Positions 9,340 through 53,640 of a DNA stretch of 64,000 nt are shown here, in pieces. The stretch lies in NCBI GenBank assembly GCA_902799835.1, contig CADCCF010000004.1:150032-214031 (forward strand). The letters are read 5' to 3'. The notes under the pieces are model-generated. The model saw nothing but the letters and a program-made list of their open reading frames with translations, had not been told where the DNA came from and did no database searches. A program made the translations under genes and the position numbers. The DNA comes from an uncultured Pseudomonadota bacterium. Lineage in GTDB: Bacteria > Pseudomonadota > Alphaproteobacteria > RF32 > CAG-239. Positions within the stretch are counted from its first letter, which is position 1, and every line of letters starts with the position of its first letter.

Positions 9340-11601
9340 ATGAGTATTTTAGGTGCATTACAAGCTGGTGTTTCGGGATTATCTTCCCAATCCAGCGCCA
9401 TGGGAGCGGTAGCTGACAACATCGCTAACATGAACACTGTTGGTTACAAAGACAACAACGTGTCATTTTCGACACTGGTAACCAAACAAATTTCGTCAAA
9501 CAAATATTCCTCCGGCGGTGTCCAACCACATGCCAGCCAGAACATCAGCTCGCAAGGCTTGTTGTCTTCTGTTGCATCCAACACTTCGTTGGCGATTTCC
9601 GGAGCAGGTTTCTTCGTAGTTAACTCTTCCAATCTTGGTGACGAGACTTGGGCCTACACCCGTGCCGGCGATTTCAAAGCTGACGAAACCGGTTATATGG
9701 TAAACTCCGGTGGTTATTATGCTCAGGCTTGGTCATTATTGCCTTGGGATGGTACAACTACCGCAGCAACTGTTGATATCAATGGCATTATGTATATGAA
9801 AGCTTACAAAAACGATGCCGGTCAAACCGTCTATATCAATGACAACATTGTCGACAAAACCAACTTGCGCGGTATTGACTTATCCAAAATCGGCGGTACC
9901 GCTACACCGACAACTCAAATTGCTTTCGGTGCTAACTTACCGTCATCAACCCGCATCGGTGACACTCACTCGGTATCAACTCTTGTGTATGACAGTTTAG
10001 GTAATCCGGCCAATGTAAGCTTAAACTATCAGAAGGCTTCGGCCAACTCATGGGATTTGAACACTTCTGTTCCATCCGGAGCTGCCGCCGTAAATCTTTA
10101 CAATAAAGATCAACAAGTTTATGCTTCTGCGGCTCACATGGAATTTTCCGATGTTCCTTCCGAGGGTTCAACCATTAAAATCGGAACCACCACATTTACT
10201 TTCACATCTTCGCCTTCAGGCACTGATACTACGGAAGTTGATATTTCATCCAACGAGCTTTCAACCGTATTGAAAAACTTCCTTGCTGCCGTTCAGGCTA
10301 ACATCCGTGACGGTGGAAGATTTTCTATCGACAAAGGTGCTATTGAGGTAAATCAAAGCTTGACCGGTGAAGAATTGCAATTTGATTGCAGCAAGTGCTT
10401 GGCTTGTGTTCAATCCTCTGCTGATATCAATCAGTCAACCGGATTGCCCACCGGAACTTTCACTTTGAAAGCTATTGACAACAACCTGCGCAACGCAGCT
10501 TACATCGATGTCACCAGCCTTGCCAGTGGCAATAGCCTGACCATTAATGGCACAGCTTTTGTTTTCACCGATCAGGCCAACAGAACCTCTTCTGCTTTGA
10601 CAACTGCCTCCGGAACAATTGCTGCCGGTACTGAGATCTTTTATCTCAACGGGCAATACATTGCTGAAGATGATAGTGGTAGTTGGTATGATATCTCCGA
10701 TCTGTCATCGGCCATTGCTGATGTCAGCGCCAAAAAACCTTTTGCCAGTGTCGGAGAACCCACCGGTGATTTCACTCAAGACGTCAAAAACTTGGCTGTT
10801 GCGATTGCCAAATCTGATATTGCCGAACCGGAACGCTTTGTTGCCAGTGGTTCAACTTTAGAGATTATTCCTTCATCAACCGGTGAGGACATCAACATCT
10901 CGGATATCACTTTCGGCAATACCAGCAACTATATCCAAGGTGGTTCATCTTTGAGCATTACCACCCCGATTACCAGCAAATTTACCTCAATCAATGATGG
11001 CATTGAACATTTGGGTAGTTCGGTTCCGGCGGTTATGTTCAATTCTGACGGTACACCTAAAACCATCAATATCAACGACATGGAAATCTATTGGGCTAAT
11101 GGTGCTCAAGATATGACCGGTAATGTTGCTGATGGTGATGGTGTCAAAATTACTCTTAACATGGGTAACGAAAACACTTCCTCCGGTTTGACCAGCTTGT
11201 CCGGCAACTTCAACACCTCATACATCAACCAAGATGGTGCTACTTTCGGTAACTATACCGGAGTTACTGTCAGTGATGATGGTATTGTAACCGCCGTATT
11301 CTCAAATGGTGAAACTCAACCGATTGCCATCATACCTTTGGCCATGTTCACCAATGCTGATGGTATGGAAGCCTTAAACAACAATGTTTGGATTGCCACA
11401 ACGGCTTCAGGCACTCCGCTATTAACTCAGGCCACCTCCGGCGGTTCGGGCGAAATAGCTTCCAGTGCTTTGGAAAGCTCAACCGTTGATTTGGCCAATG
11501 AGTTCTCCAACATGATTATTGTTCAAAGAGCTTATTCAGCTGCCGGTAAGATTATTACCACCGCTGATGAAATGTTGCAGGAGCTGACATCGCTCATCTA
11601 A
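9340..11601 (+). CDS. flgE: Flagellar hook protein FlgE (long form, 753 aa)
   Basis: N-terminal rod/hook motif SGLSSQSSAMGAVADNIANMNTVGYK. C-terminal STVDLANEFSNMIIVQRAYSA. Large central insertion domain. Confidence 0.85.
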   Translation: MSILGALQAGVSGLSSQSSAMGAVADNIANMNTVGYKDNNVSFSTLVTKQISSNKYSSGGVQPHASQNISSQGLLSSVASNTSLAISGAGFFVVNSSNLGDETWAYTRAGDFKADETGYMVNSGGYYAQAWSLLPWDGTTTAATVDINGIMYMKAYKNDAGQTVYINDNIVDKTNLRGIDLSKIGGTATPTTQIAFGANLPSSTRIGDTHSVSTLVYDSLGNPANVSLNYQKASANSWDLNTSVPSGAAAVNLYNKDQQVYASAAHMEFSDVPSEGSTIKIGTTTFTFTSSPSGTDTTEVDISSNELSTVLKNFLAAVQANIRDGGRFSIDKGAIEVNQSLTGEELQFDCSKCLACVQSSADINQSTGLPTGTFTLKAIDNNLRNAAYIDVTSLASGNSLTINGTAFVFTDQANRTSSALTTASGTIAAGTEIFYLNGQYIAEDDSGSWYDISDLSSAIADVSAKKPFASVGEPTGDFTQDVKNLAVAIAKSDIAEPERFVASGSTLEIIPSSTGEDINISDITFGNTSNYIQGGSSLSITTPITSKFTSINDGIEHLGSSVPAVMFNSDGTPKTININDMEIYWANGAQDMTGNVADGDGVKITLNMGNENTSSGLTSLSGNFNTSYINQDGATFGNYTGVTVSDDGIVTAVFSNGETQPIAIIPLAMFTNADGMEALNNNVWIATTASGTPLLTQATSGGSGEIASSALESSTVDLANEFSNMIIVQRAYSAAGKIITTADEMLQELTSLI

Positions 11602-26659: not shown

Positions 26660-27886
26660 TTATACCATATCAGGTTCAGGAATGACTTCCGGCTCAGGCT
26701 CCGGTTTTTTGAAGAAATGATGTTGCAATTGGAACACTAAAGCTCCCCATAAGGCTGACAATCCCGATCCGCATAAAATTCCCAATCTGATTTCTGCCTG
26801 CATATCATAAGGCAAAGACAATTTTCCGACAAACAATGCCATCGTAAAACCGATACCGGCAATAGATGCCACGCCATACAAATCAAGCTTACTTACCGTA
26901 TCAGGAAATTTTGCCAATCCCGTTTTTACCATCAACCAAGTAGTTGTAAAAATACCGATCTGTTTACCCAAAAACAACCCGAAAATAATACCTAAAGTCA
27001 AAGTATGAGTAAATGTTTCCGCTGTAACATTACCAAGATACAACCCGGCCGAAGCAAAAGCAAACACCGGTAAAATAATCAAATCAACCCATGGTTTTAA
27101 TTTGTGCATCAAACGCTCTAACGGCGAATATTTTTTGATATTAACCCGCATCGGATAGGCCATTGCTACCACCACTCCGGCCATAGTGGTATGAATACCG
27201 CCATTCAAAAAGCAATACCACAATGCCACCCCGAAAAACATATACAACGAAAAATTGGTAAACTGCATACGATTGAGCAAATAAAGACCTACGCAGGCCA
27301 AACTGGCATAGCCTAACAAATCAATTGATACACCTTTGTTGTAGAATAATGCAATAATCAAAATTGCCCCTAAGTCATCAAAAATCGCAATTGCTAAAAG
27401 AAAAATCTTGGCGGCCTTAGGTATTGCCCCACCAACCAGCATCAAAACACAAACCGCAAAAGCAATATCGGTTGCCGTAGGTATTGCCCAACCATTAGCA
27501 TATTGTTCCGAATTATAATTAAAAGCAAAATAAATTAAAGCCGGACAAATAATACCACCGGCAGCGGCTATTGCCGGCACAAAAATTTGTTTGATATCCG
27601 AAAGAAATCCCTCACGCATCTCACGTTTGAGTTCCAATCCCACTTGCAAAAAGAAAAATACCATCAAAACGTCATTAACCCACCATTCTAACGGACGTGA
27701 AAATTCCACATCGCTTAGACCTACGAATAACTTGACATTCCAAAATTCATATACCTTATAATGTAAATCGCTGTTAGCACACCAAATCGAGGCAATCATT
27801 GCCGCAATCATCAAAACACCGCTGGTCATTTCATTATAAATAATCTTTTCCAGCCATTCTCTTAGATTCATTTTTCTCACCTGCAA
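26660..27886 (-). CDS. nhaA: Na+/H+ antiporter NhaA
   Basis: N-terminal EKIIYNEMTSGVLMIAAMIASIWCANS and a 12-TM profile typical of NhaA. Confidence 0.85.
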   Translation of the reverse strand: MQVRKMNLREWLEKIIYNEMTSGVLMIAAMIASIWCANSDLHYKVYEFWNVKLFVGLSDVEFSRPLEWWVNDVLMVFFFLQVGLELKREMREGFLSDIKQIFVPAIAAAGGIICPALIYFAFNYNSEQYANGWAIPTATDIAFAVCVLMLVGGAIPKAAKIFLLAIAIFDDLGAILIIALFYNKGVSIDLLGYASLACVGLYLLNRMQFTNFSLYMFFGVALWYCFLNGGIHTTMAGVVVAMAYPMRVNIKKYSPLERLMHKLKPWVDLIILPVFAFASAGLYLGNVTAETFTHTLTLGIIFGLFLGKQIGIFTTTWLMVKTGLAKFPDTVSKLDLYGVASIAGIGFTMALFVGKLSLPYDMQAEIRLGILCGSGLSALWGALVFQLQHHFFKKPEPEPEVIPEPDMV

Positions 27887-28065
27887 ATTAAAGCTAAAAT
27901 CTCTGACTATTATATAATGCCGAAATATTTAATATTTTATAAAAAACAACAAATAAAACTCTTAAAAAACGACTCGAAAAATTGCATGGTATTATTATAC
28001 CATTAAATCTGATATTAAAATTAAATAATTTTCATATCTTATTGATTTTAATTGATAAAAAAAAT

Positions 28066-28094
28066 TTGACAAAATATATAAATTATGGTATATT
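28066..28094 (+). promoter_or_regulatory. Near-consensus sigma-70 promoter (TTGACA-17-TGgTATATT) reading into the ORF-free region
   Basis: Same architecture as the promoter at 25245, including the ATGGTATATTA -10 region. A 7-bp-arm palindrome ATGGTATtattATACCAT lies upstream at 27993-28013. Confidence 0.5.
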
Positions 28095-28332
28095 AATAAT
28101 CGATAACTTATTATTAATATTTATTTTTGGTAAATAGGACTCAGTCACTTTTAATTCGACCTTTGTGTTCAAGCCATTTATCCTGCTTGAAGTCTGAAGT
28201 CATCACCCTATATTATTTTGATGTTTGGTTAACATTGTAAATAAATAGTATGATGCTTTATAAAAGAATTAAAAAACAAAGAAGCCCGGGAGTTTACCAA
28301 GAGAAGCATTTTGAAAGCAAAGATACAAAATG

Positions 28333-28461
28333 AAAACTAGAGAAACAAATTTAATTTGTTTCTTGCCATCACAACATCAGTTGAGATAGGCGTGCCGTAT
28401 GGCCGAACACATCAGTGTTACGCAGTTTCCATTTTTTTGCCGGATGAGTAAGTCTTACAAG
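28333..28461 (+). ncRNA. Candidate structured RNA element, tandem copy 1
   Basis: Identical core GTTTCTTGCCATCACAACATCAGTTGAGATAGGCGTGCCGTATGG, then the hairpin AACAC-atca-GTGTT. No ORF. Lies downstream of a strong promoter. Confidence 0.3.
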
Positions 28462-28703
28462 TGGACGTTCTAGAAAAAAGGATCTGTAATCATTTATCTG
28501 CTTGCAGATAAAAAACAGTAAGCCTTTCCACCTCTGAAAAAAAATGAAATTTCAACAATCTAAGGATCTGTAATCCCTTTATCCTCTCTCGGATTATTGG
28601 CGAAAATAATCTGATTGCCGATAGAGTAACAGCAAACCTTAGAAAGAGAAAAAAACTGATTTTGTCTCGGGAAAGCATTTCGAGAACAGAAATCAAAGAA
28701 TTA

Positions 28704-28846
28704 AACTAGAGAAATACAAGAACTAACCACTCCTGTGTTTCTTGCCATCACAACATCAGTTGAGATAGGCGTGCCGTATGGTCGAGCACAACAGTGCTAC
28801 GCAGTTTAATTTTGAGATTTTTGTTTAAGAATGTAAGTCTTAAAAA
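28704..28846 (+). ncRNA. Candidate structured RNA element, tandem copy 2
   Basis: Same leader (AAACTAGAGAAA) and core as copy 1. The hairpin is AGCAC-aaca-GTGCT, which is compensatory relative to copy 1. Confidence 0.3.
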
Positions 28847-29041
28847 TGAATGGGCAATAACTTATTTATCTACCCTCCTCATTTCCGTGAAAAACAGGAA
28901 AAAAAACCTCTCTTCAAATAGTCAGCACAAGACTAAAAGAAGGGAGGTTTATCTTTTTAAACTGTTTCCTTATCCCTAAAAAATTCGCACAATACCATTA
29001 TACAAACTTAAAAAAGTTCGGATAGTAAGGCGGATAATAAG

Positions 29042-29133
29042 AAAACTGCGAATAGCTCGTGTAGATAATAAGAAACTTCCTAAAAAGTGAAGGAAGTGTA
29101 CTTTAAGCGTACATGACCGAACTTTTTAGGAAG
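29042..29133. repeat. Dispersed hairpin element, copy 2 (leader AAAACTGCGAAtAGCTCGTGTAGATAA plus nested inverted repeats)
   Basis: Outer stem CTTCCTAAAAAGT/ACTTTTTAGGAAG. Inner stem TGTAC/GTACA. Leader is shared with copy 1. Confidence 0.5.
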
Positions 29134-29178
29134 CTTCTGTATTAGATACCAGCTAGACGCAATTTTACCACGAACTTT

Positions 29179-29523
29179 TTAATCTACGTAAATTACGTCA
29201 TCATCCGTATCACTCACACATTGGCGAGTAACCGTGCCTTTTTTGCGTGATACCACGGTGTAACACTTGTTTTCCGGTTCAGCAATATAAACCTTTGGTT
29301 GTTGCACCTGTACAACTCTGGGACGAGTTGAAGCAACAATAGCATCAGCCAAAGCAACACCGGCTAAAGTCCCCAAGACGACATTACCAAAATGACGTCC
29401 TCCATGGTGATGAGTGTGATAATGAAAACCACCCCCATGCCAGCCGCCGTGCCAACCGCCTCTTGCCTGAGCCGGAGCGGCCATTGCCATGCAAACCATC
29501 AAAGCAATTATCAATTTTTTCAT
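29179..29523 (-). CDS. Secreted Gly/His-rich protein (possible metal-binding)
   Basis: Signal peptide, then GGWHGGWHGGGFHYHTHHHGG. Confidence 0.45.
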   Translation of the reverse strand: MKKLIIALMVCMAMAAPAQARGGWHGGWHGGGFHYHTHHHGGRHFGNVVLGTLAGVALADAIVASTRPRVVQVQQPKVYIAEPENKCYTVVSRKKGTVTRQCVSDTDDDVIYVD

Positions 29524-29967
29524 TTATTTATCTCCTTTTGCTTCACCTTTTACTTTTTTATCAAAATTGTGACGATGATGTGGTTTTTTGTGATGAAATT
29601 CTTTACGAAATTCTTTTTTCATTTCTTCAAACTTTTCTTTCTGTTCAGCAGTCAAAATCTTTTCAAATTCCCCCATGTTTTCTTGACGTAATTTATCCAT
29701 TTTCTCATGCAAAGCTTTGCTCTCTTCCATCAAGGGTTTCATTTTTTCACGACCTTCTTCATGGATTTTTTTCGCCAAATCACGTTGTTCCTGGGTTAAT
29801 TGCAATTTGTCGGCCAATTCCTTTTGCATATCGCCCCGACGTCCTTTCATATGATGTTCAACCGGCGGAGGCGGCATGGTTTCATCAGCTTTTTCTTGAG
29901 CCCAAACATTTGAACTCATCATAACGGTCAAAGCACAAACTGTTGCTAATAAATATTTTTTCATCAA
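29524..29967 (-). CDS. Periplasmic Spy/CpxP/ZraP-family (LTxxQ motif) protein
   Basis: Signal peptide, two LTxxQ-like motifs (LQLTQEQRD, ILTAEQKEK) and a His-rich C-terminal tail. Confidence 0.5.
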   Translation of the reverse strand: MMKKYLLATVCALTVMMSSNVWAQEKADETMPPPPVEHHMKGRRGDMQKELADKLQLTQEQRDLAKKIHEEGREKMKPLMEESKALHEKMDKLRQENMGEFEKILTAEQKEKFEEMKKEFRKEFHHKKPHHRHNFDKKVKGEAKGDK

Positions 29968-30461: not shown

Positions 30462-30728
30462 CTAGCTGACCTTTAACAAACCATAGTCATCAACCGGCAA
30501 GCCCATTTCTTCAATAGAGCTTATTTGTTGATATTGCGCATCACCCAAGTCCCAATATGGAGAATAGGAATAATCTTGTTGTTGCGGCAGAAAAGCAAAT
30601 ATCAACAAAGATACAGCCAAAACCGAAGCCCCGGCCTTAATAATTTTATTACGGCGCTTGCGTTTGAAATAAAGCGGTTTTGCTTCTTGAATTAAATTCG
30701 AAATATCTTGCATATTTCCTCCTTTCAT
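30462..30728 (-). CDS. Small single-pass membrane protein, possible anti-sigma factor
   Basis: Sits immediately upstream of the ECF sigma gene. Start taken at MKGGNMQD. The longer ORF-track version would overlap tRNA-Gln. Confidence 0.35.
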   Translation of the reverse strand: MKGGNMQDISNLIQEAKPLYFKRKRRNKIIKAGASVLAVSLLIFAFLPQQQDYSYSPYWDLGDAQYQQISSIEEMGLPVDDYGLLKVS

Positions 30729-30841
30729 ACCACTTAAAACGATAGTAGATTTAAAAAGGTTCATTTGGCAACAAATTTTTTTCAAAAACACTCTTGCATT
30801 TAAAAACAAATTGCTGTATAGGATTGAGCAAACAGCACTAT

Positions 30842-30915
30842 TGCTTGATCGTCTAATGGTAGGACAGCGGACTCTGACTCCGTTAATCTTGGTTCGAATC
30901 CAGGTCAAGCAGCCA
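30842..30915 (+). tRNA. tRNA-Gln (anticodon CTG)
   Basis: Cloverleaf with U1:A72 pair. Anticodon loop CTCTGAC. T-loop TTCGAAT. Encoded CCA end. Terminator hairpin follows. Confidence 0.8.
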
Positions 30916-30945
30916 TAAAAATAGCACCCTTCATGGGTGTTTTTT
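30898..30945 (+). repeat. Direct repeat copy 1: tRNA-Gln 3' end plus terminator (ATCCAGGTCAAGCAGCCATAAAAATAGCACCCTTCATGGGTGTTTTT)
   Basis: Repeated exactly at 31056..31102. Confidence 0.8.
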
Positions 30946-30957
30946 TATGGATGTTTA

Positions 30958-31035
30958 ACCATTGGATTTGAACCAACCGTTCGGAATCGCATCACGATCC
31001 GTAAGTGCATCTGCGCTTGTGGCGAAGTGGTAAGA
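30958..31035 (-). pseudogene. tRNA fragment (T-arm GGTTCAAATCC only), probably a degraded tRNA
   Basis: The reverse strand has a canonical T-arm but no matching acceptor 5' strand. Confidence 0.3.
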
Positions 31036-31055
31036 TCATCGGGCTTGCCCGATAC

Positions 31056-31102
31056 ATCCAGGTCAAGCAGCCATAAAAATAGCACCCTTCATGGGTGTTT
31101 TT
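31056..31102 (+). repeat. Direct repeat copy 2 of the tRNA-Gln 3' end plus terminator
   Basis: Identical 47-bp copy without the tRNA body. Confidence 0.8.
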
Positions 31103-31124
31103 AATTATCTTTTTTAATTGTACC

Positions 31125-31628
31125 CTAGCCTAATAAAGAAGTTTTTTCCGCAATCATTGCCGCAATCAGATTAACATCTTCTGTTTTTAGGGCATATAAA
31201 GCTATTGAAAAAGGCGTAAAATCTGACTTTGCACACCATTTTTGCATCAGATTAAATTTATAACGGATAGGCTTTTTGGTACGAATTGCAATAATCGGCA
31301 ATTTCTTAAAGCAACAATGAGCAATTTTGAATTCGGCAAAAGCCACCATTCTCCAAGGTAACGGCCGACAATGATCAATTTTTATATATTTATCGTCAAT
31401 CACTACCATTACATGTTTGCATAAATATTTTATTGCCCACAGCGTAAAAGAGTAAAAACAACAAAACAGCAATCCCCAAATTTGCCACCAATAAATTATT
31501 ACCGGATAACACCAAATACAGTGAATCATAAATGCCAACAACAAAACAGTCAACCCTAACCAAACATAATTAGGCTTAAAATGATAGTAAAAAACTTGTT
31601 GTTGAATATCTTTTTTCATACGCTCCAC
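31125..31628 (-). CDS. Integral membrane protein (hypothetical, 167 aa)
   Basis: Three predicted TM helices. No family recognised. Confidence 0.4.
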   Translation of the reverse strand: MERMKKDIQQQVFYYHFKPNYVWLGLTVLLLAFMIHCIWCYPVIIYWWQIWGLLFCCFYSFTLWAIKYLCKHVMVVIDDKYIKIDHCRPLPWRMVAFAEFKIAHCCFKKLPIIAIRTKKPIRYKFNLMQKWCAKSDFTPFSIALYALKTEDVNLIAAMIAEKTSLLG

Positions 31629-53233: not shown

Positions 53234-53317
53234 AGTTCATACCATTGTCCATCTATAACATAAAATAAAAAAAAATAAACTATTTTATTAATTAACTAAC
53301 ATTTAAAATAAATTGGT

Positions 53318-53410
53318 GGCGCAAATTCAAGTCTCTACTCCACCTTTTCATACAAAAAAAACACCCGCAAGGGGTGTTCTTTTGTTTTGCGCGGATTATG
53401 AGACTACTCC
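53318..53410. repeat. Tandem duplicate (copy A) of the segment carrying a terminator hairpin and the tRNA-His 3' end
   Basis: About 90 bp nearly identical to 53503..53590 (AAGTCTCTACTCCACC...ACACCCGCAAGGGGTGTTCTTTTGT...GGATTATGAGACT). Confidence 0.7.
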
Positions 53411-53562
53411 GCTGTCGCTTTGTTCACTGCGTTCATTCGGCTTTGCCTCACCGGCACACTTTCGTGTGCCTTTCACTTGTAGTCGAACTCACTTCTCGTG
53501 AGTTCAAGTCTCTACTCCACCTTTCCATACAAAAAAACACCCGCAAGGGGTGTTCTTTTGTA

Positions 53563-53640
53563 TGGGGCGGATTATGAGACTCGAACTCACGACATCTGGT
53601 ACCACAAACCAGCGCTCTAACCAACTGAGCTAAATCCGCC
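53563..53640 (-). tRNA. tRNA-His (anticodon GTG) with encoded G-1 and CCA
   Basis: The reverse strand reads G-GCGGATT-TA-GCTC-AGTTGGTTA-GAGC-G-CTGGT-TTGTGGT-ACCAG-ATGTC-GTGAG-TTCGAGT-CTCAT-AATCCGC-C-CCA. A G-1:C73 pair is present. Confidence 0.85.

Follow-up and report, generated by a model that had tools for sequence, protein, structure and literature searches.

Two paralogous five-way-junction domains on a predicted ~850-nt non-coding RNA in a strain-variable cassette slot of a ruminant-gut alphaproteobacterium

In a 64-kb stretch of DNA (64,000 nt in full, hereafter the window) from an uncultured, poorly studied alphaproteobacterium of the ruminant gut, we found two near-identical repeats that form the cores of two paralogous five-way-junction domains. 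Both domains lie within an ORF-less stretch bracketed by consensus promoter and terminator signals, which is probably a real, selected structured non-coding RNA and an accessory gene of one strain. The repeats sit in a 1.3-kb gap between an nhaA-like gene, whose NhaA homologues are annotated as deriving from Alphaproteobacteria MAGs, and a gene for a 114-aa secreted protein (Table 1).

The repeat search of the region returned a direct repeat of 72 nt with 94% identity, the copies starting 379 nt apart and being separated by a gap of 307 nt. A sequence-only reading of this DNA had reported two tandem copies of a ~70-nt element about 371 bp apart; the element is as described, and its spacing is corrected here. 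The 5' part of both repeats is an identical 45-mer, GTTTCTTGCCATCACAACATCAGTTGAGATAGGCGTGCCGTATGG, also recognised in that reading, which occurs exactly twice in the window with up to 3 mismatches allowed (shuffles expect 0). From copy 1 to copy 2 the repeats differ in four respects, GGC to GGT, AACAC to AGCAC together with GTGTT to GTGCT, and the loop ATCA to AACA, and all four are compatible with pairing, as had been noticed for the hairpin. The upstream leader and downstream motif that had been pointed out are likewise present, the former as AAACTAGAGAAA at 28335-28346 and 28703-28714 (repeat family D2) and the latter as GTAAGTCTTA at 28448-28457 and 28833-28842 (repeat family D10). Conservation between the copies is strongly uneven, since the alignable flank (D2) is 74% identical (~26% divergence) and the 45-nt core carries no difference, the chance of 45 unchanged positions at the flank rate being 0.74^45, or ~1e-6. 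The identical 45-mer could nevertheless stem from gene conversion and not from selection.

Table 1. Features of the locus, in coordinates of the window, and cargos of the same slot in sister strains.
Feature	Position	Strand	Description
nhaA-like gene	26660-27871	-	
Sigma-70-type promoter	28066..28094	+	TTGACA, 17-nt spacer, TG-extended TATATT; 11/12 consensus positions
Strain-specific cassette	28095..29010	.	Segment wholly different between alleles of the locus
Predicted non-coding transcript, ~850 nt	28100..28958	+	Order: unstructured 5' part, Dom1, A1, A2, Dom2, terminator
Domain 1 (Dom1)	28301..28456	+	Long closing stem capped by five-way junction; MFE and centroid agree; z = -3.95 on 28310-28450; R1 145.5 bits
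Domain 1 helices	P1 28328-28338/28424-28434; P2 28340-28349/28355-28364; P3 28365-28375/28380-28391; P4 28394-28396/28401-28403; P5 28404-28410/28415-28422	+	
Repeat copy 1	28357..28428	+	Spans P2 3' strand, P3, P4, P5 and start of P1 3' strand
Peptide ORF, copy 1	28356-28451		31 aa, TTG start
Hairpin module A1	28477..28527	+	AAAGG-AU-CUGU-AAUCA-UUUAUCUG...CAGAUAAA-ACAG-UAAG-CCUUU; z = -2.4
Hairpin module A2	28559..28643	+	A1 paralogue with longer apical insert; z = -3.9
Domain 2 (Dom2)	28669..28841	+	Same five-way junction, 22-bp closing stem; z = -7.08 on 28680-28829; R1 167 bits
Domain 2 helices	P1 28697-28707/28803-28813; P2 28709-28718/28734-28743; P3 28744-28754/28759-28770; P4 28773-28775/28780-28782; P5 28783-28789/28794-28801	+	
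Repeat copy 2	28736..28807	+	
Peptide ORF, copy 2	28735-28809		24 aa, GTG start
Intrinsic terminator	28904..28958	+	12-bp outer stem AACCUCUCUUC.../...GAAGGGAGGUU, then UAUCUUUUU; z = -4.5 for 28846-28962
114-aa secreted-protein gene	29179-29523	-	
L001-type cassette			94-aa lipoprotein behind G10-11 tract; leader ~270 nt
L042-L044-type cassette			177-aa multi-pass membrane protein
L045-type cassette			60-aa protein, two transmembrane segments

Secondary-structure prediction, one of the checks that the sequence-only reading had proposed, folds both copies into the same junction domain. The repeats make up only the cores of larger domains (~155-175 nt), each a five-way junction of helices P1 to P5 closed by a long stem (P1, 16 bp in Dom1), and the same architecture was obtained when the two segments were folded apart. 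P2 is a 10-bp hairpin, P3 a bulged hairpin (GCCAUC-A-CAAC-AUCA-GUUG-A-GAU-A-GGC), P4 a 3-bp hairpin (GCC-GUAU-GGC, with GGU in Dom2) and P5 the hairpin singled out beforehand. Only ~4 junction nucleotides (A, GU, C) are left unpaired, and an outer helix extends both domains to the limits given in Table 1 by means of GCAUUU and UCUU, which are conserved within the flanking motifs. When the 64 kb were scanned on both strands in non-overlapping segments of 150 nt, Dom2 on the + strand ranked third of 854 by extremity of folding (z = -8.06).

As the reference for covariation we took the structure predicted from Dom1 alone, with 40 pairs in the reliably aligned part of the alignment of the domains (A2). 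The 18 substitutions between Dom1 and Dom2 comprise four double compensatory changes (U-A to A-U and G-C to U-A in P1, A-U to C-G in P2, A-U to G-C in P5), three one-sided wobble-type changes located in P1, P2 and P4 (A-U to G-U, C-G to U-G, G-C to G-U), and a single broken pair at the apex of P2, where the loops differ. Random placement of 18 substitutions in 100,000 trials gave P = 3.7e-4 for at least four double changes and P = 1e-5 for at most one broken pair. Pairing was complete (100%) in register, against 32-41% with the 3' partner shifted by 1-3 columns, and the same helices were recovered by RNAalifold. The accompanying shuffle control gave 31/500, a value to be read against the floor of ~1/16 that applies with two sequences. 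The built-in paralogue pair thus yields some covariation evidence without orthologues, all of it from two sequences within one molecule. In P1, three of the differences on each strand are adjacent (columns 32-34 and 140-142 of A2), so that they could represent one hairpin-templated mutation event. The sequence-only reading had favoured a structured RNA over neutral duplication on the strength of P5; this is supported and extended here, since P5 is one of five helices present in both copies and P1, P2 and P4 also changed in a compensatory or wobble manner.

We weighed four rival explanations, in descending order a non-functional cassette remnant, orphan tandem aptamers, a DNA-level or minus-strand element, and small peptides. 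The first, which we regard as unlikely although it deserves serious attention, sees in the stretch an AT-rich, recently acquired or decaying insert with a local duplication, the 45-mer being a gene-conversion tract and the compensatory look arising from quasi-palindrome (template-switch) correction of DNA. The clustering of the P1 changes agrees with this, as does a fold equally possible on both strands, which DNA palindromes predict; so do the occurrence of the element in one strain, with relatives doing without it, and the lack of a homologue in any collection searched (see below). A remnant would, however, hardly account for compensatory or wobble changes in four separate helices (P1, P2, P4, P5), for three wobbles that pair only as + strand RNA, for a multi-branch junction with z-scores down to -8, unexpected from junk, or for the insert's own strong terminator, correctly placed behind a conserved promoter.

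Returning to the reading as a structured RNA, the promoter listed in Table 1 is the best promoter site within 27500-29600 and has a predicted transcription start at ~28101. Sister strains conserve its -10 region together with the ~200 nt before it, and in them these sequences stand ahead of protein-coding cassettes of the same orientation. Promoter and U-tract terminator hairpin bracket the ORF-less stretch as expected, at the level of consensus, of an independent ncRNA gene, and the 861-nt stretch folds at -230.6 kcal/mol (z = -8.3 versus dinucleotide shuffles). The predicted RNA also carries the hairpin modules A1 and A2, which have in common AAGGATCTGTAATC and their layout (repeat family D12), the same closing stem, the CUGU/ACAG stem, and the elements AAGGAUCUGUAAUC, UUUAUC and ACAG-NAAN-CCUU. 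CU-rich motifs resembling anti-Shine-Dalgarno sequences occur at 28530 (CCACCUCU), 28582 (AUCCUCUCUC), 28727 (ACUCCUG, in the P2 loop of Dom2) and 28880 (CCCUCCUC), and could be candidate seed regions for pairing with the ribosome-binding sites of mRNAs.

Folding energy leaves the choice of strand undecided, because the values for the whole stretch are nearly equal (-230.6 kcal/mol on the + strand vs -222.8 on the minus strand), Dom1 folding better on the minus strand and Dom2 on the plus strand. We assigned the RNA to the + strand because the promoter is on that strand, the terminator fits a + transcript, all protein cassettes at the slot have the same orientation, and the one-sided substitutions are G-U wobbles on the + strand only. 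The A-run on the 5' side of the terminator means that it could also end minus-strand transcripts.

A repeat element acting at the level of DNA or of mRNA ends (MITE- or REP-like, or a protein operator), or else a minus-strand RNA, is in our view improbable. Such an element might be suspected from the long terminal inverted repeats formed by the P1 arms around the conserved core, from the palindromic TAAGTCTTA found 3' of each copy, and from the similar folding of the two strands. MITEs, however, conserve their terminal inverted repeats best, whereas here the P1 arms have diverged most, and only two copies turned up in the 64-kb window, with none in the related loci and no third in ~300 kb of related and other DNA. 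A transcript from the other strand fares no better: of the two minus-strand promoter-like sites listed within the cassette (28241, 28621), neither is placed rightward of both domains, the minus-strand 114-aa gene to the right ends in its own hairpin, and the hairpin at 28904-28950 would halt any read-through.

Within 28100..28958 on the + strand, no ORF exceeds 61 aa or is preceded by a Shine-Dalgarno sequence, and none of the ORFs matched Pfam or PHROG. With no Shine-Dalgarno-equipped ORF between 28100 and the terminator, and a convergent gene next, a cis-regulatory role is unlikely, because nothing that could be regulated lies between the domains and the terminator. The only frame open through the repeats encodes FLAITTSVEIGVPYGR[T/A][H/Q]QCYAV, and it is very improbable that the repeats serve to encode two such small peptides. 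This frame does run through both repeats, the four differences being two synonymous and two non-synonymous, and small proteins are encoded by other alleles of the slot. Yet both ORFs have non-ATG starts without a Shine-Dalgarno sequence, the frame is broken just upstream by a length difference of 10 nt, and the C-termini differ. In addition, phmmer found no similar protein among 1.84 billion representatives, and the identical contig L005 has no called gene at this place. The repeats accordingly lack the RBS-equipped start, conserved frame and protein homologues of a small-peptide gene.

Searches for relatives were negative throughout. At the gathering thresholds of Rfam 15, two tRNAs were the only matches in the whole window. 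At E <=10 on 27700-29300 the best match was RT-14 (28.3 bits, threshold 48.1), located off the repeats, and the sub-threshold matches covered neither repeat and included no riboswitch; nhaA-I/II, GOLLD, ROOL, OLE, HEARO, raiA, alphaproteobacterial sRNAs, tRNA and tmRNA were among the families that stayed below their gathering thresholds here, and ARAGORN reported nothing in the repeat region. The JGI metagenomes gave no match to an exact 19-mer or a wobble-degenerate 29-mer. In GTDB genomes the wobble pattern had 0 matches and the P1/P2 gapped pattern 10, all due to chance (15-22/45 identities downstream, without a covariance-model score). Four patterns run on IMG/VR returned 11 chance matches, from three of them, which were judged unrelated by sequence context or because R1 did not match. 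Blastn against phages and plasmids revealed no homologue, and a full-text literature search for the core sequence found nothing. R1, the covariance model of the domain, was run on the window, 16 related loci and 21 pattern-hit loci, and matched only the two domains and a truncated same-strain contig; the nhaA/114-aa-gene locus from 8 lineages held no diverged copy of the RNA.

Throughout this region, the window is matched at 100% identity by same-strain contigs that come from other samples (L005, L017/L031). Their independent assembly excludes an assembly artefact, and their identity leaves no population variation to exploit; one same-strain contig breaks inside the repeat, as expected of an assembler that meets a repeat. 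Judged by these sequence searches, the RNA is known from one strain only and belongs to no detectable family. The earlier suggestion of an sRNA or cis-regulatory family hence finds no support as far as a family is concerned, no third copy having appeared in the window, in the related loci or in the public collections searched. The sequence-only reading had named two observations that together would count against it, a total of two copies and differences placed without regard to pairing: the first is what we found, whereas the differences preserve pairing.

Among known systems, tandem-aptamer riboswitches such as the glycine riboswitch also place two homologous multi-helix junction domains in series, with helices kept by covariation. 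They differ from the present RNA, in which the domains are ~250 nt apart with other hairpin modules between them, the junction is nearly all paired, a downstream ORF and an Rfam match are both lacking, and conservation was found in a single strain. Two aptamer-like domains are indeed there, but they do not form the 5' UTR of a same-strand gene with an expression platform, and no aptamer conservation across species was seen in GTDB, JGI metagenomes, IMG/VR, phages or plasmids. It seems doubtful that the junctions are orphan tandem aptamers, each a riboswitch-like ligand sensor, in a ligand-responsive regulatory RNA or the leader of a lost gene. The strictly conserved core sequence and the pairing of homologous junctions on one transcript would suit aptamers, as would the presence, in other alleles, of a gene behind the same promoter (after a long leader in the L001 type). 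Against them speak the few unpaired junction nucleotides, which leave little space for a ligand pocket, the absence of both an ORF and an expression platform before the terminator, and the failure to reach any Rfam gathering score.

The ornate RNAs GOLLD, ROOL, OLE, HEARO and raiA are large, have many helices and no coding capacity, occur in accessory or variable contexts, and form families conserved across many taxa. The present RNA resembles them in its size (~850 nt), its many helices, its non-coding nature and its accessory, variable context; unlike them it comes from one strain, and it does not match their Rfam models at E <=10. Tandem alphaproteobacterial sRNAs (AbcR1/AbcR2, alpha-r14 'cuckoo') share with it the alphaproteobacterial host, duplicated structured units side by side in an intergenic position, and anti-Shine-Dalgarno-like motifs (here those at 28530 and 28880). 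However, each of those sRNAs is a transcription unit by itself, ~100-150 nt long and equipped with a promoter and terminator of its own, whereas a single promoter and a single terminator bracket both domains here, again without Rfam matches. The RNA falls outside these three groups and is an orphan bacterial structured ncRNA. With CsrB/RsmZ and 6S we compare only the proposed mode, repeated identical binding modules on an ncRNA, and claim no membership; unlike in CsrB/RsmZ, there are only two AAGGAUC motifs, and they are at stem bases instead of loops.

Several further candidates were rejected. A Li+/Na+ riboswitch, suggested by the adjacent nhaA, was dismissed as the RNA is divergent from nhaA and has no Rfam match. 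The likeness to a class II tRNA cloverleaf is one of topology only, with neither ARAGORN nor the tRNA model matching, and the GGAUGAG reminiscent of a hammerhead ribozyme follows Dom1 only and is missing from Dom2. The differences between the copies (C/T, A/G, T/A, T/C) are not confined to adenines as in the TR/VR pair of a diversity-generating retroelement, and the flanks contain no RT-like ORF. A replication origin, considered for the TTTATC boxes, was discarded as there is no GC-skew switch; att sites, a CRISPR-like array and type III antitoxin repeats were each considered and rejected as well.

Comparison of the locus between strains (blastn and MAFFT; window, L001, L042-L044, L045) showed that similarity ends at ~28063-28094 on the left and restarts at 29011 on the right. 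Both flanks persist in sister strains, the left one with nhaA regulatory region, palindrome and -10 box and the right one from 29011 onwards, and the middle is unrelated in each type (Table 1); more distant relatives have only 90-215 nt at the slot and no insert. The close strains together hold four unrelated cargos, without mobility genes, integrase or transposase, and neither Pfam nor PADLOC has a family for the cargo proteins. A terminator common to the three protein cassettes, GGGCC(G/A)TCCGTGAGGATCGCCC (GGCGATCCGTGAGGGTCGC in L045), is absent from the RNA cassette. As read from these alignments, the RNA is one allele of a strain-variable cassette slot, and its restriction to one strain implies that it is dispensable for the lineage. 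'Minimal mobile element' sites, described in Neisseria, are strain-variable inserts between conserved genes that are swapped by homologous recombination. The slot resembles them in its unrelated cargos between the same flanks (the nhaA promoter region on one side, the 114-aa gene's terminator on the other) and in the lack of integrase and transposase; it differs in that the upstream promoter is shared by the cassettes and that one cargo is an RNA.

The explanation that we favour, and to which as a whole we give an even chance, is that of duplicated five-way-junction domains on one selected ~850-nt + strand RNA acting as a docking platform. A single RNA, transcribed by sigma-70, bounded by the terminator and devoid of ORFs, would bear both paralogous domains, which would have been born by internal duplication. 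Selection would since have preserved both the fold and the exact sequence of the 45-nt core, the fold by way of changes that are compensatory in P1, P2 and P5 and of the wobble type in P1, P2 and P4. Because sequence and pairing are both constrained, the junction is almost without unpaired nucleotides and the domain is present twice, our best guess is that the duplication provides two docking sites for a single partner. A protein, perhaps a dimeric one, would be a likelier partner than a small ligand. Working in trans, the RNA would serve as a scaffold or decoy, and it would be an accessory gene in a slot that holds genes for small envelope proteins in sister strains. If real, it would be an unclassified ~850-nt structured RNA from a poorly studied bacterium, and an RNA gene able to fill an exchangeable slot that small envelope proteins also use. 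How far this finding can be trusted and generalised is limited by the confinement of the RNA to one strain and by the absence of homologues. A bolder extension, which we consider a long shot, would make it the first representative of a novel class of modular, large ncRNAs serving as strain-variable accessory genes, the RNA cassette being interchangeable in function with the cassettes for small envelope proteins (phage exclusion and envelope or niche adaptation are examples) and its two identical-core junctions capturing a host or invader factor.

Other observations concern the surroundings of the slot. Between nhaA and the cassette promoter lies a palindrome, ATGGTAT-TATT-ATACCAT (27996-28013), that reads ATGGTGT...ACACCAT in L001 and ACGGTAT...ATACCGT in L042; both arms have been altered together twice, independently, which suggests a conserved operator or a hairpin of the nhaA leader. 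The motif AATATTTAATATTTTATAAAAAA (27908-27948), upstream of nhaA, is found in all relatives examined, including those with 76-82% NhaA identity, and is probably the nhaA promoter or a regulator site. In strains with the lipoprotein cassette, the -35 of the shared promoter is replaced by 10-11 G (L001 ~11075-11095 on the minus strand of the locus, equivalent to window 28066-28080). The length of this run varies by sample, L002 having one G more, and it looks like a candidate phase-variable promoter of the 94-aa lipoprotein.

A second strain difference adjoins tRNA-Gln, where window 30713-31125 corresponds to L001 6999-8811: L001 has an extra 1.8 kb there with a Phage_30_3-domain protein, and the window has ~400 nt containing tRNA-Gln. 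Elsewhere in the window, an intergenic stretch of ~330 nt on the minus strand (53234-53560), just downstream of tRNA-His (53563-53639), gave the lowest folding z-score of all, with -11.5 for the minus and -8.5 for the plus strand of 53430-53579. It had no match in Rfam and might represent a further unclassified structured RNA, or else several terminator- or REP-like hairpins.
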